A DNA stretch of 64,000 nt from Bdellovibrionales bacterium (GTDB taxonomy: Bacteria > Bdellovibrionota > Bdellovibrionia > Bdellovibrionales > JAGQZY01): NCBI GenBank assembly GCA_964230645.1, contig CAXRHT010000001.1:160001-224000 (forward strand), read 5' to 3'. A program made the translations under genes and the position numbers. Every line of letters starts with the position of its first letter. Positions within the stretch are counted from its first letter, which is position 1. The notes below the pieces were generated by a model. The model saw only the letters and a program-made list of their open reading frames with translations, was not told the origin of the DNA and made no database searches. Of the stretch, positions 30,306 through 59,587 are shown in pieces.

Positions 30306-31790
30306 ATGTCGTTTTTTAAAAGCATCAATTTAAAACAAGAGCTTTTCTCTTCCTTTGTTGTCTTTCTTATCGCTCTGCCTATATGCCTTGGGGTTGCCAT
30401 TGCCTCTGGTGTCGACCCTATTAAAGGTCTCCTAACTGGTATAATTGGTGGAATTGTTGTCGCCTCCATTAGTGGCGCGCCCTTACAGATCAGCGGTCCT
30501 TCAACCGGCTTAGCTGTGATGGTGCTTCATGTTGTGGATGTCTACGGGGCGCCAGCACTCATCCCTCTTGGAATTATTGTTGGGCTTTTTCAACTTCTCA
30601 CTGCCATCTTTAAAGTGGGGCACTTTTTCCAAGCCACACCTCCGGCCCTTTTAAGAGCCATGCTCTCTGGAATCGGAGCCCTCATTCTCGTCTCACAGAT
30701 CTATATCATCTTTGATCTCCCCATGAGTTCCAAAGGACTACAGAACATCATTGGCCTTCCCGATATTGCTGGAACTATTTTTGGTGGCCAGCTTACGACA
30801 GTGCAAATCGAAGCCGCCATTGTGGCTCTGCTTGTACTAGCCGTTTTATTTTTATGGAACCTCGGTAAATCCCAAATTTTTGAAATCTTTCCGGGCCCCC
30901 TTGTCTCCACTCTTGCCGCCTCACTTCTCGTCTATTTCCTCGGCTGGGATATGAGAATGGTCAATCTTCCCGAAGATATTTTTGGTAAACTTCTTCATAT
31001 TAATTATGGAGAAGGCTTTGCGGTGATAGATTGGAACTTTATTGCCTACTCCTTAGGTTTTGCCTTTGTTGCTAGTGCCGAAACCCTTTTATGTGTCAGT
31101 GCCATTGATAAAATTGCCAAAACCACTTCCAACTACAATCGCACCATTTTCGCACAAGGGATGGGGAATTTTGTGGCAGGCCTTTTGGGTGCCATTCCTG
31201 TTGTGGGCGTGATTTCTAGAAGTGCCGCGAACCTTGAGTTTGGTGCAAAAACAAGAATGTCCTCAATCATGCAGGGCTTTTGGCTCTCAGCCTTTTTATT
31301 TCTCCCCGCGGTTCTGGGATATGTACCCATTCCAGCTTTGGCAGGTCTTCTAATTTACATCGGTATAAAGCTTCTCGATTTTAAAAATATGTTTGCCTAC
31401 ATTAAAGCATGGAATAAGACTTCCTTAATTTTTGGAACTACTTTTGTTCTAACGATCACTGTGGATTTGTTGGCTGGAGTTCTTTCTGGTTTTGTGGTCG
31501 CTATCCTTCTACTTGTCGTAGATGTCCTGAAATATGATTTGGTTGTTCAAGACGAAGGAGAAAATAAAGTTCTAAAATTTAAAGGTAAACTTTCCTTTTT
31601 AGATCTTCCCGTTCTTTCTAAAAAACTAGAGGGTCAAGACCTTGGCGATGTTACTAACTTAGAGTTCTGTTTGCGTGAGGTGGATTATCTCGATCCCGCT
31701 ATCTCTGAACACCTTAATGAACTTAAAGATAAACTTGAGAGCCAGGGTAAGACCATAAAAATTCGCTACAGCAAATTTAATATTCACTAG
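30306..31790 (+). CDS. SulP/SLC26 anion transporter with STAS-like C-terminus
   Basis: LIALP.CLG.AIASG, QISGP, ETLL, GVISRS.AN...GAKT. Confidence 0.93.
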   Translation: MSFFKSINLKQELFSSFVVFLIALPICLGVAIASGVDPIKGLLTGIIGGIVVASISGAPLQISGPSTGLAVMVLHVVDVYGAPALIPLGIIVGLFQLLTAIFKVGHFFQATPPALLRAMLSGIGALILVSQIYIIFDLPMSSKGLQNIIGLPDIAGTIFGGQLTTVQIEAAIVALLVLAVLFLWNLGKSQIFEIFPGPLVSTLAASLLVYFLGWDMRMVNLPEDIFGKLLHINYGEGFAVIDWNFIAYSLGFAFVASAETLLCVSAIDKIAKTTSNYNRTIFAQGMGNFVAGLLGAIPVVGVISRSAANLEFGAKTRMSSIMQGFWLSAFLFLPAVLGYVPIPALAGLLIYIGIKLLDFKNMFAYIKAWNKTSLIFGTTFVLTITVDLLAGVLSGFVVAILLLVVDVLKYDLVVQDEGENKVLKFKGKLSFLDLPVLSKKLEGQDLGDVTNLEFCLREVDYLDPAISEHLNELKDKLESQGKTIKIRYSKFNIH

Positions 31791-43030: not shown

Positions 43031-45385
43031 TTGATACGCAAACGAATTTCTTTCATCTTATCTCTATTAACTGTTAGCGCCGTGTTTGGATTTCAAAGTT
43101 GTGGACCAGGGTTTTCTGGAAGTGACTTGGACATCGGAGCACAATTTAACTCTTCAGCCCTTCTGAATAGCGCTGACATTAAAGGAAATCTTTACCTAGA
43201 GGGACGTAGACTTTCTGGGGTTGTTTGTTCCAATGACCACTATGTCGAATTGGAAGTCGGAGCTGGTTCTAATAAAAAAAATATCCAACCAGCCCTCACC
43301 TTCACCGGAAGTGATCTTAAAAAGCAAAACCGTTTTATCAGTAAAGAATGTCAGAATATGACTCACCTGAGTTTTTTCAGTGCCAATCTTCCCAATTCAC
43401 TTAAAAATACTAAGAATTGGAAGGTAATTGGTCAGCATAGTGCCATGTCTTTTGAACCGATCTTACTCAACAGCAAGGGACGCAATTATGGAATTCTTTA
43501 CCACACCTGGCACTGCCCGGTTTCCGAAGAATTTGATCCTGATCATGTTTACGATGTTGAAAAAATCCTGAAAGGACAAGGAGACTGGGGACCTTTAAAC
43601 TGGCCTCATTGGGTGGGAAAACCATTTGACGGTTACTACTGCTTAAAGAACCGACCCGAGATCATTAAAAAGCACGCCATCCAATTAGTGAATGCTGGAA
43701 TTGACTATATTTATATCGATATCACCAATTGGCCTTACGCCTACAATGACGATGGAGGCTACGATCAGGAATTTAAAGATAAAATCCATGATCCTCTTAT
43801 GAAGCTTCTACAAGTCTACAGGCAACTCCAGGCATCAGGAATCGCCGTTCCTAAAGTTGTTCCCTGGATTGGAGCCACCAATTACCAAAAGAAAAGGGAC
43901 ATTCGTTACAAGAATTCCGTGGTCAAATGGGCCCGTGAGGTCTTCCATCCACAATCTGCTGGTGTAAGGTTTCACGACGGTTCTAAGCCCTTTCTCTTTT
44001 ATAAAGTGGCCAATGGCCACTACAATTACCCTGATGTTAAACCCATGATTGATCAGCTAAGAGACAAATTCTACCCCATTCCGAAATGGGCTCAAGTGGA
44101 ACACTTTGCTAAAAGTCCGCAAAAACCTTTTGAAGGCCTTAATAAAAGAGGTGTGTGGAGCTATCTTGAACCCTGTAAAGTGGATGGGAACCACAACATT
44201 GTAAAAGGCTGTAAGCAAAGACGAGCCGGCAACCAGGCTTCCGTCGCTCCTGCCTATCAACACAGTCATATGCTTCATCCCTTAGCTCAAGGTAAAAATA
44301 ATGGCATTACCCTTTATCATCAGTTCCAAGGGGCCATGAAAAATGGAATCCGTTTTGTGTCCATTGCGAGCTGGAACGAGTGGTTGGGTAGAAAATCGTG
44401 CAAAAGCATTCCTCACTCAGGGAATGCCCCGCTTTTTATTGAGCATGATGATATCTCGGACTACTTTAACTACCGCTGTCGGCAAGGCGCTGAGGAGACT
44501 GTCACTTATCAAGGAAAACAGTATCCTTTCTTTGCTGATGCGTTCAACTATAACCGTTCACGAGGCCTTGAGCCCAATAGAAAGTTCTCTGACTGCTACT
44601 ATCAGTTGATGAGACATATGATTCATGCTGATAAAATGGGACAAGGAGACCTCTCTCCTAAGGAAAAACAATCGTTTGCTAAAAATTGTGGATTTAAAAA
44701 CTTACGGTCTCCTTCTAGCTACACCCCAGTGGAACTTCCAGAAGCCAAACCGGTGAAGACGAATCCACAACCTAAGAAACCTACGCCTAAGAAGCCTACA
44801 CCTAAGAAGCCTACACCTAAGAAACCTACGCCTAAGAAGCCTACACCTAAGAAGCCTACACCTAAGAAACCTACGCCTAAGAAACCTACACCTAAGAAGC
44901 CTACACCTAAGAAACCTACACCTAAGAAACCTACACCTAAGAAACCTACACCTAAGAAACCTACACCTAAGAAACCTACACCTAAAAGTCCAAATCCCGC
45001 TCCTAAAAAGGTTTCCTACGGTCCTGTCGTTGGTAGTATCGCTAGTGTGGCAAAACTTAAAGATGGGAGAGTTCGAATCAAAGGTTGGGCTTGTCAAAAA
45101 GGCGTGGATAAGTCGATCGCTGTTCATATCTATGTGGGCAATCCTTATCGGTCAAAAAATAGTGGTGACTTTTTCGGAAAGGCTCTCACTCGCGATCGAT
45201 CAGAAAAGGCCGTGCATGACGAATGTAAAACCAAAGGGTCTGTCACTCACCGATTTGACCTCATTTTCTCTGAAAAGAAGAGAGTACGATTTAAAGGGAA
45301 AAAGGTTTATATGTACGGTATCCGAGAGAAAGGCTCCGTTACAAATTCCAGCCTCAATCGTTCGGGTCAATTTAGAATTCCCTAA
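43031..45385 (+). CDS. Lipoprotein with GH99/GH71-like domain, (PKKPT)14 linker and C-terminal beta domain
   Basis: Lipobox FQSC; YHTWH, HA..L..AGIDYI.ID.TNW, SWNEW, SR.LEP; C-terminal I.GWAC domain. Confidence 0.7.
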   Translation: MIRKRISFILSLLTVSAVFGFQSCGPGFSGSDLDIGAQFNSSALLNSADIKGNLYLEGRRLSGVVCSNDHYVELEVGAGSNKKNIQPALTFTGSDLKKQNRFISKECQNMTHLSFFSANLPNSLKNTKNWKVIGQHSAMSFEPILLNSKGRNYGILYHTWHCPVSEEFDPDHVYDVEKILKGQGDWGPLNWPHWVGKPFDGYYCLKNRPEIIKKHAIQLVNAGIDYIYIDITNWPYAYNDDGGYDQEFKDKIHDPLMKLLQVYRQLQASGIAVPKVVPWIGATNYQKKRDIRYKNSVVKWAREVFHPQSAGVRFHDGSKPFLFYKVANGHYNYPDVKPMIDQLRDKFYPIPKWAQVEHFAKSPQKPFEGLNKRGVWSYLEPCKVDGNHNIVKGCKQRRAGNQASVAPAYQHSHMLHPLAQGKNNGITLYHQFQGAMKNGIRFVSIASWNEWLGRKSCKSIPHSGNAPLFIEHDDISDYFNYRCRQGAEETVTYQGKQYPFFADAFNYNRSRGLEPNRKFSDCYYQLMRHMIHADKMGQGDLSPKEKQSFAKNCGFKNLRSPSSYTPVELPEAKPVKTNPQPKKPTPKKPTPKKPTPKKPTPKKPTPKKPTPKKPTPKKPTPKKPTPKKPTPKKPTPKKPTPKKPTPKKPTPKSPNPAPKKVSYGPVVGSIASVAKLKDGRVRIKGWACQKGVDKSIAVHIYVGNPYRSKNSGDFFGKALTRDRSEKAVHDECKTKGSVTHRFDLIFSEKKRVRFKGKKVYMYGIREKGSVTNSSLNRSGQFRIP
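44771..44980 (+). repeat. Coding tandem repeat, 14 x 15 bp (CCTAAGAARCCTACR)
   Basis: Direct count of units; encodes PKKPT x14. Confidence 0.97.
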
Positions 45386-53849: not shown

Positions 53850-53876
53850 AGGGATCTTTTAAAGATCCCTTTTTTT
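53850..53876 (+). terminator. Intrinsic terminator after nrdB
   Basis: AGGGATCT/AGATCCCT followed by a T-run. Confidence 0.7.
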
Positions 53877-54146
53877 ATGACAAATCAGACCAATGAGCTC
53901 TTTAATTTGGCAATTTTTCTCCACATCGTGTCTTAACTTCTTATTCCCAATGACTTTGTAATGATTTTTGCGCCCCTGTTTTGTAATGGAAATATAGCCC
54001 TCAGCCTCCAGGTCATGGATGATTTTTTGAGTGGCTCTTTCCGTGATCCCGACAATCGAGGCCATTTCTTTGGCCGTCTGGTCGGGATTACGGCTTATTA
54101 AAAAGAGAATGTGACCGTAATTGGTGAAAAAACTCCATTGAGACAT
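53859..54146 (-). CDS. Small winged helix-turn-helix regulator (MarR/AsnC-like, W.F.TN..H type)
   Basis: MSQWSFFTNYGHIL...GITERATQKII.DLE.EGYI...K.GRKN.Y; probable start ATG 54146. Confidence 0.88.
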   Translation of the reverse strand: MSQWSFFTNYGHILFLISRNPDQTAKEMASIVGITERATQKIIHDLEAEGYISITKQGRKNHYKVIGNKKLRHDVEKNCQIKELIGLICHKKRDL

Positions 54147-54180: not shown

Positions 54181-54215
54181 AACAAAATACGAAAATTAAT
54201 TCGTGTATTTTTGTT
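54181..54215. promoter_or_regulatory. Palindromic operator candidate
   Basis: AACAAAATACGAA-aattaa-TTCGTGTATTTTTGTT; core ACGAA-N6-TTCGT at 54189-54204. Confidence 0.55.
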
Positions 54216-54330: not shown

Positions 54331-56373
54331 ATGTCCAGAGAACTTCTCATTCGAACTCCATTCAAACCACTGTGGAGAGTTTTACTTAGTTACAGAGACT
54401 TTTATCCGGTCATCATCGTCTACTCCATTTGCGTGAGCTTTCTCACTCTAGCTACCCCGATCTCCGTACAATCACTTGTAAGTACTTTTTCCTTTGGCGC
54501 TTATTTTCAACCTATTTTCATTCTGAGCCTCATCCTCCTGGCCCTTCTTGCCATTCTGGGACTGGTCAAATCATTGCAATACCTGATGGTCGAGTACTTG
54601 CAACGAAAGCTCTACGCGAAAATAACAGCGATTATTGGTATGGCCTATCAGCTCCAAGACGGTGAGAAGAAAGATTTAAGCCTCGCTAGAAAAGCCAATC
54701 GCTATTTTGATATTATTCTTATCCATAAAAGCTTAGCCTTTTTGATGACCGATGGAATTACGGTAGCCCTGCAGACTTTCCTGGGTCTCATCCTGATCTC
54801 TTTTTACCACCCTTTCTTTATTGTTTTTGGTGGCTTGATTCTGCTCTCTATTGTAGGGCCCATTTATTTTTTTGGTATTCGGGGCCTAAAAACATCCATT
54901 GATGAGTCCAACAGAAAGTACGATGTGGCTGACTACTTAGAAGAGTTGGCGGCTCGATTTGAAAGTGGCGAGTCCATTGACCAAGTCCAAAAAACCGATG
55001 AGCAAATTGGCTATTTTCTCTCGGGTCGCGCTCGTCATTTTAAGACCTTATTCACTCAAAACATCCTTTATATGGCTCTCTATGCCTTTTTAAATGCTCT
55101 CCTTCTGGCCCTTGGAGGGTATTTAGTGATTGAGAATCAATTGACCCTAGGACAGTTGGTTGCTGCCGAAATCGTGGTCAATGCTATTTTAAGTCACCTC
55201 CTCTATGCCATGAAGTATCTGGAGTCTTTCTACGATCTCTATGCCGCCACTTATAAGGTGTCCCCTTTCTTTGAGGTTTTTGAAGAGTTGGCGGAAAAAG
55301 AAAGAAAAGACTGGAACTTCCTTGATCGCTACCCTCCTGTGGGACGCGCGATCACCAAGATGAAATCCCTCAAACAAGTCTACACTCCTACGAACTATCG
55401 CAAGCTCAGCCTCAAGTTTGGTTTATCCGTCCTTGCGATCACACTGACATTTATTTTTGTCCCCTGGCAGCAGTTCAGTCGCGGACGCGGAAGTGTCGTC
55501 GCTTTAGACCCTAACGATCGCGTGCAAACCATCACGGCCCCCTTGGCGGGGATTGTGGAAGAATGGCTTGTTCAAGACGGACAAACAGTTAAAAAAGGCG
55601 AACCCATAGTGAGGGTGGTCGACAACGACCCCAACTACCTCACTCGCCTGGAGGCAAAACGAGATGCTGCCGTTGCAAAATTTGAAGCGGCCAAAGAGGC
55701 CAGTGACACGGGCCGCTTGAACTATCACCGGCAGGAAAAGCTCAATCGCGATGGTCTAAGTTCCTCCAAAGAGTTTGAACAAGCCAAAATTCGCTACAAA
55801 CAACTAAGAGCCGAAGAATCGGCTGCGGCCGCCAACTTGGCTAAAGCCGAAGTAGAACTCTCAAGGCAGCAACAACAAACCGTGGTCGCCCCCAGAGATG
55901 GCCGTATTCGCCGGATCCAAATTGGCTCTGGTCAAACTAAAGTGAAAGCCGGAGACCCACTGGTAGAGTTCGTGCCCGACACAGAGAACAGAGCCGTAGA
56001 GCTTTATGCGGATGCTAACGATTTACCACTAGTTCATTCGGGTCGAAAGGTGAGATTACAATTTGAAGGCTGGCCGGCGGTGCAATTCACCGGGTGGCCA
56101 TCGGTCTCGGTAGGAAGCTTTGGAGGAGTCGTCACCATGGTTGACCCTTCGGTTGATTCCAACGGGCAGTTTCGAATACTAGTAAAACCAGACCCAGAAG
56201 ACCCTGAACCCTGGCCCGATGAATTTTTCCTTAGGCAAGGAACCCGTGTGCTAGGAATCATTAACCTTGATGTGGTCACAGCCGGATACGAAGTTTGGCG
56301 ACAAATAAATGGCTTCCCTAAGTCTATGGATGTGGCTACCGAATACTTTAACGGGCAGGATAAAAAGAAGTGA
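54331..56373 (+). CDS. Fusion of ABC-exporter transmembrane domain and HlyD-family adaptor; no nucleotide-binding domain
   Basis: aa ~15-315 six-helix ABC membrane domain (L.LATP..VQ.LV, NRYFDI, FYHP, GGYLVI..QLTLGQLVAAEI); aa ~345-680 HlyD (TM, PWQQ..G.G, lipoyl halves, coiled coil, VRLQFEGWPAVQFTGWP, GYE.WRQ.NGFP); no Walker A/B or LSGGQ. Confidence 0.9.
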   Translation: MSRELLIRTPFKPLWRVLLSYRDFYPVIIVYSICVSFLTLATPISVQSLVSTFSFGAYFQPIFILSLILLALLAILGLVKSLQYLMVEYLQRKLYAKITAIIGMAYQLQDGEKKDLSLARKANRYFDIILIHKSLAFLMTDGITVALQTFLGLILISFYHPFFIVFGGLILLSIVGPIYFFGIRGLKTSIDESNRKYDVADYLEELAARFESGESIDQVQKTDEQIGYFLSGRARHFKTLFTQNILYMALYAFLNALLLALGGYLVIENQLTLGQLVAAEIVVNAILSHLLYAMKYLESFYDLYAATYKVSPFFEVFEELAEKERKDWNFLDRYPPVGRAITKMKSLKQVYTPTNYRKLSLKFGLSVLAITLTFIFVPWQQFSRGRGSVVALDPNDRVQTITAPLAGIVEEWLVQDGQTVKKGEPIVRVVDNDPNYLTRLEAKRDAAVAKFEAAKEASDTGRLNYHRQEKLNRDGLSSSKEFEQAKIRYKQLRAEESAAAANLAKAEVELSRQQQQTVVAPRDGRIRRIQIGSGQTKVKAGDPLVEFVPDTENRAVELYADANDLPLVHSGRKVRLQFEGWPAVQFTGWPSVSVGSFGGVVTMVDPSVDSNGQFRILVKPDPEDPEPWPDEFFLRQGTRVLGIINLDVVTAGYEVWRQINGFPKSMDVATEYFNGQDKKK

Positions 56374-57746
56374 GAATCGTTTTTTTTACTCTCTTGTTCT
56401 TCTCTCTTCCGACTTTCGCCATTACCCCAGAAGAAGTGGTGGCTTCAAGTCTTAATCACTTCCCAAAAGTGATTCAGTCCATCAAGCAATTGGAAATTGA
56501 AGAGAACAAGACCATGGAAAAGCGTGGAGCCTTTGATGGCAGCATTCAGGGAAAAATGAGTGCACGTACCGAGGGCTATTATGAGGGCGACTACTACGAG
56601 TTAAAAGCTGAAAAACCTATTCCCTATTTCAATACAAAAATCTTTGGAGGAAAAAGACAAGGCTTTGATGATTTTCCCGTTTATGAGGCCGAGTACGAAA
56701 CGCTCAACGAAGGTGAGCTTTTTGCGGGTTTTTCCGTATCACTTTTAAGAAACTCCTTAATCGATATGAATCGCTTTAATTTGTACTATCAACAGGAGAA
56801 CCGAACTCAGGCCAAAATTGACGTTAAAGATGTGAAGATCAATGTCCAGACTATGGCTCTTAAGGCCTATTGGACCTGGTTTGTAAAAGGCCAACAATTG
56901 TCCGTTCACCAGGGAATTCTAAAACTAGCCGCAGAACGGATGGGTAACTTTAAAAAAAGAGTGAAACTAGGAGATCTCCCCGCCATTTACCTCACAGAAA
57001 ACAATCAGTATCTTCTAGCCCGTAAAGCCAAAGTCATTGAGACGAGTCTAGAGTTTCAAAAAGCAAGCTTCTACCTCTCTCTATTTTACCGTAATGAGAA
57101 AGGTGTTCCGAAAGTGCCCGATCTCGAAGACCTTCCCTCTCTAGAAAAAATTGATTTAAGTGCTTCTGGGATCACCAATGATCTCTATAAGCGAGCGGTT
57201 GAAAACAATCTGGATTTAAAGAAGTTAAGATCCCAGGAAAAACAAGCTGAACTTGAGGTTCGAATGGGAAATAACGATCTAATTCCCGAACTTGATCTCT
57301 CCTATGAGTGGAGGCAAGATCAAGGGGTTGGACCAGAGCGCCTTCGACCCGAGGAGAACAAAGTCCTTTTGAGCCTTGAGATCCCTTTTCAGTTTAGAAA
57401 AGGACTGGGACAAAAACGTGCGGCTAAAGCAAAAATAGAACAGATTAAGACAAAAAAGAATTGGCAAATCGATCAACTCAACACGAAAGTAGCCAGCTTA
57501 AAGACTGAAATTGAGGCCTACTCTTCTATCTACCAAACAACAAAACAACAGGTGGAAATGGCCGACAAACTCGCCGATGCTGAAAGACGCAAATTTTCCC
57601 AAGGTGCCAGTGACCTTATTCTCGTAAACATTCGCGAAATCAACTACGCGGAAGCTCAGGTCAAAAATCTCATGAGTCTTCTTAAGTACGAGTTTGCATC
57701 GGCCGATCTTAAAAAACAATTGGTTGAATTCATCCCCCTTCAGTGA
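56370..57746 (+). CDS. TolC-family outer membrane channel
   Basis: Signal peptide; helical repeats, P.LDL, LEIP.Q.RK..G, E..KF..G.SDL..VN.RE; GTGA overlap with the fusion gene. Confidence 0.9.
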   Translation: MRIVFFTLLFFSLPTFAITPEEVVASSLNHFPKVIQSIKQLEIEENKTMEKRGAFDGSIQGKMSARTEGYYEGDYYELKAEKPIPYFNTKIFGGKRQGFDDFPVYEAEYETLNEGELFAGFSVSLLRNSLIDMNRFNLYYQQENRTQAKIDVKDVKINVQTMALKAYWTWFVKGQQLSVHQGILKLAAERMGNFKKRVKLGDLPAIYLTENNQYLLARKAKVIETSLEFQKASFYLSLFYRNEKGVPKVPDLEDLPSLEKIDLSASGITNDLYKRAVENNLDLKKLRSQEKQAELEVRMGNNDLIPELDLSYEWRQDQGVGPERLRPEENKVLLSLEIPFQFRKGLGQKRAAKAKIEQIKTKKNWQIDQLNTKVASLKTEIEAYSSIYQTTKQQVEMADKLADAERRKFSQGASDLILVNIREINYAEAQVKNLMSLLKYEFASADLKKQLVEFIPLQ

Positions 57747-57911
57747 TGAGGTTTACCCCCTCACTGATTCCTCTTTTGAATCTTGATGACTACTGGCACA
57801 GCGGTCTAAAAAAAATGCTGTTGATAATTTAGCTTGAATAATTGGTGTAGTTTTTAGAACAATTGTGTTTGAGCTTGCTCGCTTTGTGAAGTTCTGGGTA
57901 AAAGAATAAAC

Positions 57912-58331
57912 ATGCGTTGTATCCTCATTTTATTGTTTGTTCTTCTCGCCTCTCCTTTCCAAGCTCTGTCGAAATCTATAACAATTAAGATAGATGCCGA
58001 GGAGAGCAAAAAACATAAAGTCTATATGAGTGTCTTTACCCAAAGCGAAGGTTTCCCCGATCAAGCCAAGAAAGCTAAAAGAAATATTGTTTTAGAACCT
58101 GGCAAACAACAGATAACCATTAGGCTAAAAGAGCAGACCCTAGCTTTATCAGCCTTTATCGATACCAACGGAAATAAGGCTTTGGACAAAAATAGTCTTG
58201 GTATACCAACCGAGCCCATAGGCTTTAGCTCAAACCCGACCCTCGTATTTTCTGCACCCGACTTTGATTCCTCGGCCATCGAATTAAAGGAGACCTCGAC
58301 TGTCATTAATATGAAATTCAAGACTTACTGA
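57912..58331 (+). CDS. DUF2141-like exported protein
   Basis: D.NGN..LD.N.LGIPTEP.GFS.NP....APDF. Confidence 0.85.
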   Translation: MRCILILLFVLLASPFQALSKSITIKIDAEESKKHKVYMSVFTQSEGFPDQAKKAKRNIVLEPGKQQITIRLKEQTLALSAFIDTNGNKALDKNSLGIPTEPIGFSSNPTLVFSAPDFDSSAIELKETSTVINMKFKTY

Positions 58332-58528
58332 CCTTCCCTTTCTTCTACCAACCTTCGCCTTTAGCCCTCGATCATGCTTGGTGGCTCGGTATTTTTAGTT
58401 AACACCGAACGTTAGAGAGCAAATCATAGAGAAACTTACCCACTCCCCTGGTATTCTTGCAAAAGAGGAAGGCTTAAGCCAATGGCTTATTTTCTTGCTT
58501 TGATAGACCTCTAAACAAAGGGGGGATT

Positions 58529-59587
58529 ATGAGTGACTGGATAAAAGATTATTTTGTTCGGGAAAAGTCAGTGCTTAACAGATATGGTCTCTCTTTACTC
58601 CTTCTTGCCACTTCTTTTGTTGTTATGAATTTCGTATCTAACATTGAACAAGTGAATCTCTCTTCAGCGATTCTTGGAGCCGTTGTCCTCTCAGCGATCC
58701 ATGGGGGCTTTGGCCCAGCTATAGCTGTTAGCCTCATCGGCGCTCTAGGCCTCGATTTTTTCTATGTAGCCCCGATCCACTCGGTCTTGGACTCGCTCAA
58801 CTCTTTCCTCCGGTTTTTTATTTTTATTTCAGGTTCAATGCTTGTCTCCTTTATTGTCGTCCTATTGAGAAATTCTCTTATAGAGACTGAGAACTTTAGA
58901 CATGATTTGCAAGAAAACCATAGGCAAACTAATAATCTAATGGCTGTTATCGCCCACGACTTAAGAAACCCTATTGGAGCAATCAAAGGATTTGCCGATT
59001 TACAGAGGCAGTCTGATACCTTGAACTTGGATTTCATTGAGAGAATCTACAATAACTCAAACTTTTGCTTAGAACTGATTGAAGATTTGCAGGAGTTCTC
59101 TTCTTTTAGGCACTCCAATTTCACTCTAAAACCCAACCCCATAGACTTAAACTCAGCTCTGAGAGAGGTTTTAGAATCCATTCAACCTTTAGCCCGAAAA
59201 AAAGATATTCAAATTGTATTTGAGTCCCCAACCACAGATTTTACTGTGAAGGCTGACAAGAACCTTTTAAGAAGAGCCATTCAAAACATTATGGACAATG
59301 CGATTAAGTACTCTCCTTCTGGAACCGTTGTTACAATCGAACTCACAGAGTCTCAGCACGATTTGCAGCTTAAAGTCAGCGATCAAGGACTTGGTATCAA
59401 GGAAGAAGAAATTAAAAAAATATTTACTCCTTTTTACAAAACGCCCCACAAACCCACAAATGGTGAATCCAGTACAGGCCTGGGATTAGCCTCAGTGGTT
59501 TCAATCCTCAAAGCTCATCAAGGGGAAATTAAAGTTTCCAGTCAGCCGGGCGCAGGATCCTGCTTTACTATCCATTTACCAAAATAA
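58529..59587 (+). CDS. Sensor histidine kinase with DUF4118 (KdpD-like) membrane domain
   Basis: GG.GPA..DFF..P TM block; AHDLRNP H-box; NAIKYS, DQGLG, GLGL, G.GS.F. Confidence 0.92.
   Translation: MSDWIKDYFVREKSVLNRYGLSLLLLATSFVVMNFVSNIEQVNLSSAILGAVVLSAIHGGFGPAIAVSLIGALGLDFFYVAPIHSVLDSLNSFLRFFIFISGSMLVSFIVVLLRNSLIETENFRHDLQENHRQTNNLMAVIAHDLRNPIGAIKGFADLQRQSDTLNLDFIERIYNNSNFCLELIEDLQEFSSFRHSNFTLKPNPIDLNSALREVLESIQPLARKKDIQIVFESPTTDFTVKADKNLLRRAIQNIMDNAIKYSPSGTVVTIELTESQHDLQLKVSDQGLGIKEEEIKKIFTPFYKTPHKPTNGESSTGLGLASVVSILKAHQGEIKVSSQPGAGSCFTIHLPK

Follow-up and report, generated by a model that had tools for sequence, protein, structure and literature searches.

An ABC-exporter membrane domain without an ATPase, fused to a periplasmic adaptor and encoded together with TolC in a Bdellovibrionales bacterium

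We analysed a window of 64,000 nucleotides from a Bdellovibrionales bacterium (contig CAXRHT010000001.1, positions 160,001 to 224,000 of the forward strand), in which two adjoining genes encode an envelope-spanning machine that derives from an ATP-binding cassette (ABC) exporter and has no ATPase domain. The first gene, at 54331-56373 on the plus strand, is one uninterrupted frame of 680 amino acids. Its N-terminal part (54331..55266, amino acids 1-312) is a type IV ABC-exporter transmembrane domain (TMD) without nucleotide-binding domain (NBD), recognised by profile search and fold comparison. At the position of the NBD there is a cytoplasmic linker (55267..55404, amino acids 313-358), placed by the structure model, the homologue alignment and bridging contigs, and the rest of the chain (55405..56373) is a membrane fusion, that is periplasmic adaptor, domain with an anchor helix at 359-377, lipoyl and barrel parts and a short hairpin, as seen in domain scans and the model. 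The adjoining open reading frame (ORF) of 458 amino acids (56370..57746, plus strand) encodes a TolC-family outer membrane factor (Pfam OEP, E 2.3e-28); it overlaps the stop of the fusion in a GTGA, an arrangement by which tolC is, as read from the sequence, translationally coupled to the fusion gene. A TolC-homologous gene lies 3' of the adaptor in 111 loci. An earlier model-made annotation of the same DNA (the original prediction) had already described one frame joining a six-helix TMD to an adaptor, followed by an overlapping tolC, and ORFs, profile, fold and hydropathy all agree with it. Its suggestion that an internal ATG at 55360 could start a free adaptor found no backing, as most homologues have F or L at this place and a linker Met occurs in 16 of 42 fusions. 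A promoter scan of the locus returned 5 sites against 7.0 expected, giving no evidence of enrichment, and the sequencing runs that contain the locus DNA are marine metagenomes.

The absence of the ATPase was evident from two sides, since neither a regular-expression search for Walker A, Walker B and LSGGQ in the 680-residue frame nor the Pfam ABC_tran profile gave any match, in line with what had been predicted. Pfam detected the adaptor half only, and ABC_membrane missed the TMD whether the protein or the genome was searched, so of the expected domain pattern the missing ABC_tran and the adaptor were recovered and ABC_membrane was not. We regard this as a false negative, not an absence, because profile search and fold model show the TMD. 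NCBIfam gave a weak match only (NF045998, amino acids 19-303, E 1.6e-6), and a profile built from 19 fusions matched HlyB (8dck/7sgr, E 8.8e-8), a PrtD-type transporter (5l22, E 3.1e-11) and ComA over positions 4-316. The AlphaFold2 model of the fused protein (pLDDT 76, pTM 0.58) had as its best fold match, among 48,161 chains compared, HlyB 7sgr_J (Z 25.6, rmsd 2.5 A, 304 residues), and the 32 best rows of this comparison paired residues 7-324 with type IV ABC exporters; Foldseek on the full model had given adaptor matches only, and the TMD was found by the broader fold comparison. SbmA 9g3d aligned at Z 17.5, there was no match to the SbmA/BacA family in Pfam or NCBIfam, and no SbmA chain was among the 35 profile matches. 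The fold of residues 7-324 was not that of a resistance-nodulation-division (RND), major facilitator superfamily (MFS) or MacB/FtsX protein. Hydropathy showed six transmembrane segments and then the adaptor anchor at 359-377, with no TM0a/TM0b helices seen ahead of it. The linker from the TMD end to this anchor measures about 50 residues (33-58 across 54 fusions), longer than the roughly 30 first proposed. The adaptor has the predicted fold but is not of the HlyD type: its hairpin is short and AcrA/MacA-like (helices 436-473 and 479-514 in the model), its best Foldseek matches are MacA and AcrA, and its TIGR01843 score of 57 bits lies far under the type-I HlyD cut-off of 209.

A single membrane-embedded glutamate, Glu280 in TM6, is invariant in the 112 aligned sequences; it was present in 119 of the 120 homologues listed and in 25 of 26 distant fusions, the remaining one having Asp, and the matching position in HlyB is Phe. 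H160, E88, K133, S193, K196, R233, Q243 and Y301-D302 are nearly invariant in the same 112 sequences, E88 lying on the cytoplasmic side. Structure prediction for residues 10-385 as a homodimer scored 0.65 against 0.00 for the best of three controls, with contacts agreeing at 90% or more and a pLDDT of 71; 20 of 30 solved pairs and 1 of 23 single chains reach the mark for this score, and resemblance to solved exporters may be the reason for the pass. The predicted interface includes residues 280-281, so that the TMD is modelled as a homodimer with Glu280 at the two-fold interface.

The fusion is not peculiar to this assembly. Contigs from two other runs, X3 (55242-56265) and X4 (55137-57900), bridge the junction at 55250-55400 without differences, though both runs belong to the study that is the possible source of the assembly; a third run, X1, contributed nothing at this place. 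Full fusions without NBD made up 54 of the 120 homologues listed (the query included), partial fusions 8, and 26 complete fusions were present among the best 150 clusters at 50% identity, a further one of which carries TMD, degenerate NBD and adaptor on a single chain. Nine of 12 same-genus genomes had a match, all nine with the junction in one frame, one genome in the genus-level comparison encoded a TMD with degenerate NBD, and in two sister genera of the host family (7 genomes) a TMD-only ORF of 300-340 amino acids abuts a separate adaptor. For one fused pair the TMD had a nonsynonymous divergence (dN) of 0.096 with a synonymous divergence (dS) of 2.5, and in the other four of five pairs TMD dS was saturated; for a further run, X5, whose listed pieces do not span the junction, the 40 best-supported differences were counted, 6 of them in the TMD, and 39 of 39 listed variants inside the ORF were synonymous. 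On these sequence comparisons the fusion is under purifying selection. Two related proteins deserve separate mention. P0137 (1202 amino acids) is a single chain made up of an N-terminal extension, a TMD, a degenerate NBD and an adaptor, thus a fusion without NBD loss. Genome G107 has a separate fused copy, at L172:7187-9104, that is split over three frames and lies directly behind a winged-helix (wHTH), a beta-carbonic anhydrase (beta-CA) and a DUF1275 gene; judged from its frames, this broken copy looks like a decaying module.

The module was found in 71 of 301 genomes of the phylum and, beyond it, on Sphingomonadales plasmids and in one Bacteroidota record; a scan of genome contigs gave 2 loci only. 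Taking adaptor, TMD and fused forms together, the family as a whole numbers about 1800 clusters (50% identity) with a match of E 1e-30 or better. The 127 loci examined divide into 77 with TMD plus NBD, 15 fusions, 14 short TMD ORFs (11 of them clean and complete), 1 cut and 20 too short, where L100 and L162, which have partial NBD tails, were kept apart from the TMD-only counts and L083 and L051 end at contig ends. Degeneration of the ATPase is widespread: among 126 distinct NBD tails, a sample skewed toward relatives of the query, Walker A GK[ST] was kept in 40, the Q-loop Gln in 2, the first Gly of LSGGQ in none and the second in 27, LSGG as such being kept in none. Three control exporters of the same genome keep all NBD motifs. 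Some members also retain an N-terminal extension of 140-190 amino acids like a C39-like domain (CLD). On a tree of TMD plus adaptor the fusions occupied seven places, for at least six of which well-supported branches leave no alternative, and the approximately unbiased test rejected one common origin (p 3.5e-68); this tree is unrooted and came from an LG+G4 quick search on 42 of the 112 sequences, P0062, P0063 and 68 others being left out. The fusions thus appear to have arisen 6-7 separate times. Since regain of a degenerate NBD is implausible, we read the changes on the tree as losses, and the fusion would then end a series that runs from degenerate NBD to TMD alone to fusion.

The loops on which an NBD docks have changed together with the loss of the NBD. 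In NBD-bearing sequences intracellular loop 1 (ICL1) has 36 residues in 69 of 70 and ICL2 has 42 in 68 of 70, whereas ICL2 has 42 residues in 6 of the 29 fused sequences and in none of the 11 TMD-only ones, and 38 in the query; docking loops of NBD-less members are variable in length, mostly shorter, but not wholly deleted. The F/Y-K/R motif of the coupling helix, which aligns with the second coupling helix of HlyB, is kept in 59 of 70 NBD-bearing sequences, 3 of 29 fused and 0 of 11 TMD-only ones. That the docking loops are fixed in NBD-bearing kin and eroded in the fusions argues against a borrowed ATPase. A single TMD in the genome belongs to this family, each of the three ABC_membrane exporters has an intact NBD of its own, and among the neighbours of fused or TMD-only loci no NBD gene recurs. 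The search for orphan NBDs suggested by the original prediction returned 40 ABC_tran matches in the genome, a few of which have no membrane-protein neighbour by a crude test. Taken together, we consider it highly probable that the fused machine works independently of ATP.

We found the module to be linked with genes for the uptake of inorganic carbon (Ci). DabA was encoded in 41 of 71 module-positive genomes against 22 of the 230 others (Mantel-Haenszel odds ratio 8.8 within families); in the largest family the figures were 16 of 25 with module and 2 of 49 without, and in another 7 of 10 and 8 of 19. The transporter ChrA, taken as a control, showed no association (27 of 71 against 98 of 230 genomes). 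In 12 of the 71 genomes dabA (7), beta-CA (4) or sbtA (1) lies within 5 kb of the module, about 0.6 being expected by chance, and gene maps confirmed 8 of these 12. An earlier locus set gave such a gene within 6 kb in 7 of 49 loci having at least 3 kb of upstream sequence, three of them fusions. On a Sphingobium plasmid (L165) and at L176 the genes form single-strand operons in the order dabB-dabA-abc-mfp-tolC, and four unrelated Ci gene families recur next to the module in distant phyla. DAB, SbtA, SulP and carbonic anhydrase (CA) are known to form a carbon-uptake toolkit (PMC10880623; 10.1101/476713). Further genes recur in this setting. DUF1275 genes (L107, L172, L173, L175) and bacterial bestrophin genes (L171, L174) are found with beta-CA, dabBA and the module, and their positions make them candidate anion channels of the same regulon. 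In one genus a sodium:solute symporter gene immediately precedes the module in the same orientation (L187:5206-6696, L188:4822-6324). A large neighbour at L132 proved to be a kinase and not DabA.

The second connection to inorganic carbon comes from the divergent gene upstream of the fusion (53859..54146, minus strand), which encodes a wHTH regulator of 95 amino acids from the ATG at 54146 (Pfam HTH_24). Homologues of this regulator were present at 19 places across the 301 genomes: 10 head dabBA operons, 4 stand beside iota-CA-like genes, 1 beside sulP and beta-CA, 1 between beta-CA and the broken fusion, 2 beside the module alone and 1 in an unrelated setting. Leaving aside the 2 places beside the module alone, Ci genes flank the wHTH homologue at 16 of 17. 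The iota-CA-like genes match the metal-independent carbonic anhydrase NF047901 at E 1e-34 to 1e-44, which is under the family cut-off. Members of the wHTH family share the start motif W[ST]F[FL][ST]N[YH]GH (in the window at 53859-54146, and in L192-L209), and their loci have in common an inverted repeat of the type CAYG-N-N8-N-CRTG, in many cases as tandem copies spaced by 14 bp. A genome scan with a matrix built from 31 sites at 13 other loci, the window copy being left out, ranked 54186..54207 third (score 16.6, top 16.8), making this repeat a candidate operator. From these gene neighbourhoods the wHTH family is likely an undescribed CO2/bicarbonate regulator. A search in plasmids returned 41 wHTH records, mostly actinobacterial. 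The regulators upstream of the module differ between loci: NhaR-like LysR in 13, ArsR-like in 4 and wHTH in 4.

Elsewhere in the window, a SulP-family permease gene without wHTH operator lies at 30306-31790 (plus strand), 22 kb from the module. Downstream of tolC (57912-59587, plus strand) follow a DUF2141 gene and a DUF4118 histidine kinase gene, which are not conserved beside the module in relatives. At 43031-45385 (plus strand) a lipoprotein-like ORF of 784 amino acids has no Pfam match and carries, close to its C-terminal domain, about 15 KKPTP repeats in tandem.

Comparison with known systems places the module between two of them. It shares the six-helix type IV TMD and the operon of adaptor plus TolC with HlyB-HlyD-TolC (7sgr, 8dck), the PrtD-type transporter 5l22 and the peptidase-containing ABC transporter (PCAT) ComA, and with the first also the 1:1 ratio of transporter to adaptor noted in the original prediction: the hemolysin complex contains three HlyB dimers and six HlyD (PMC11026475). 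Compared with the HlyB type, however, the query has no NBD, no CLD/C39 domain, a short and fused adaptor, no repeats-in-toxin (RTX) cargo and Glu for the HlyB Phe. SbmA/BacA, an SbmA-like peptide transporter (SLiPT), is an NBD-less type IV TMD dimer that is proton-driven and has no coupling helices (PMC8442886; PMC13316013); the query resembles it in the NBD-less, in our case predicted, TMD dimer, in descent from an ABC exporter and in the membrane glutamate. The coupling helices are lost in SbmA, whereas in the query the loops are shortened and the motif is lost without complete deletion. In addition, ancestry is HlyB-like in the query and YddA-like in the SLiPTs, the query has no TM0 helices and one membrane Glu in place of a ladder, and it is part of a tripartite TolC assembly whereas SLiPTs are stand-alone importers. 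EmrAB-TolC, AcrAB-TolC and MacAB-TolC have in common with it the short-hairpin adaptor fold and TolC, but the inner-membrane part of the query is not an MFS, RND or MacB protein, and transporter and adaptor form one chain. With the DAB (DabA-DabB) pumps it shares co-occurrence, clustering and a regulator family and no homology, and the main text of the DAB preprint (10.1101/476713) mentions neither TolC nor efflux. In its construction the module follows type I secretion systems, and its energy source may be that of SbmA, yet it lacks defining features of both. The literature searched, which included few subscription papers, described in its accessible parts neither the family nor a fusion of TMD and adaptor nor a DabA-tied TolC module, and the passages available from PMC8277102 and PMC4446572 likewise describe neither family nor fusion.

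As a working model we propose, tentatively and at somewhat less than even confidence, that the module is an ATP-free pump driven by the proton gradient, which moves a small solute or anion and serves the homeostasis of CO2/bicarbonate or of the pH linked to it. By analogy with the HlyB-HlyD complex, six fused chains would form three TMD dimers and an adaptor hexamer on one TolC trimer. The invariant Glu280 suggests proton coupling as in SbmA, and its protonation would substitute for ATP-driven NBD closure, in the manner of the SbmA glutamate ladder. Basic residues on the cytoplasmic side (K133, K196, R233, H236) could bind the anion, bicarbonate or a carboxylate, and transport would be outward, as in other TolC pumps. 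A bolder version, which we hold to be unlikely though worth stating, is that of a fourth tripartite class, an ATP-free single-chain transporter-adaptor under wHTH control that carries bicarbonate or the base arising in CO2 capture over both membranes. Several observations speak against the proposed pump. There is one invariant Glu and not a ladder, and the closest fold is a protein secretor, HlyB. Walker A, catalytic Glu and His switch are all retained in eleven of the 126 NBDs, including 5 that have LSxGQ, and some members may therefore still be able to bind or hydrolyse ATP. On the genomic side, none of dabA, beta-CA and sbtA lies inside 5 kb in the case of 59 of the 71 module copies; the genomes are kin, the 12 clustered cases coming from 8 genera and 4 families with 7 from one family; SbtA shows no co-occurrence with the module (11 of 71 against 27 of 230 genomes); and the value of ChrA as a control is limited, given that bicarbonate is transported by one Chr-family protein (PMC10880623). 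In the query genome itself dabA was not found, sulP is 22 kb from the module, beta-CA 185 kb off and sbtA on another contig, and no operator was seen at its sbtA, beta-CA or sulP (scores 7.3 or lower). The candidate operator in the window could serve autoregulation only.

Loss of NBD function would equally suit a passive or gated trans-envelope channel without energy coupling, possibly an inward route for bicarbonate to the cytoplasm. The one-strand dabB-dabA-abc-mfp-tolC operons, the bestrophin and DUF1275 membrane proteins among the neighbours and the conserved basic residues can all be read in its favour, but an open conduit would leak protons and an invariant membrane-embedded Glu suits coupling better than an anion pore. 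To our knowledge, TolC assemblies characterised to date all export, and we consider such a channel rather improbable. Somewhat less credible still is gradient-driven efflux of a metabolite or stress product with no tie to inorganic carbon, in which the link to CO2 genes would reflect a shared alkaline or low-CO2 regulon or genomic islands. The many copies without a nearby Ci gene, the variety of upstream regulators and the TerC and sodium:solute symporter genes that also adjoin the module would be expected from it, yet four unrelated Ci families recur beside the module in distant phyla and the wHTH family is almost confined to Ci genes.

The type I secretion-like character put forward in the original prediction stands for ancestry and fold and is not supported for function. 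ATP-independent secretion of a protein or peptide encoded elsewhere, which we rate slightly lower again, would fit the best matches to HlyB, PrtD-type and ComA proteins and the C39-like extension kept in some members. No recurring cargo gene emerged, however, among 2424 clustered neighbouring ORFs, none of 4944 ORFs of the query genome has two or more RTX repeats, the query has no N-terminal CLD and an efflux-type short adaptor, and secretion by HlyB needs its NBD (PMC11026475). Cargo of a type other than RTX proteins is still conceivable. The remaining two possibilities had also been raised at the outset, beside that of a conduit working without its own ATPase, which the conserved NBD-less fusions support. 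An ATP-driven machine that borrows an NBD or a partner half-transporter could draw on the few ABC_tran proteins without membrane-protein neighbour, but erosion of the docking loops together with the one family TMD in the query genome disfavours it, as do the exporters with their own NBDs, the lack of any NBD gene recurring at NBD-less loci and the nearest unfused relatives, whose NBDs have no Walker A; we think it very improbable. Misassembly or a recent inactivating in-frame deletion could be argued from the fact that the only bridging contigs stem from the study of the possible source and that a related fused locus is split over three frames. Dozens of diverged fusions, same-genus junctions, purifying selection and repeated origin refute a recent private deletion, and we give the artefact almost no credence.

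Natural variation in the family, which passes 6-7 times through degenerate NBD, TMD alone and fusion, offers a test case for the conversion of an ABC exporter into a secondary transporter or channel, so far known from SbmA and truncated LmrA (PMC8442886). The fusion locks transporter and adaptor at 1:1, and with two genes the trans-envelope conduit should lend itself readily to expression and structure determination. For the family, the association with DabA and carbonic anhydrase supplies a first testable condition (low CO2, high pH). If the fourth-class reading were true, which we regard as unlikely, the machine would be a component, so far overlooked, of the toolkit with which heterotrophic Gram-negative bacteria take up CO2.

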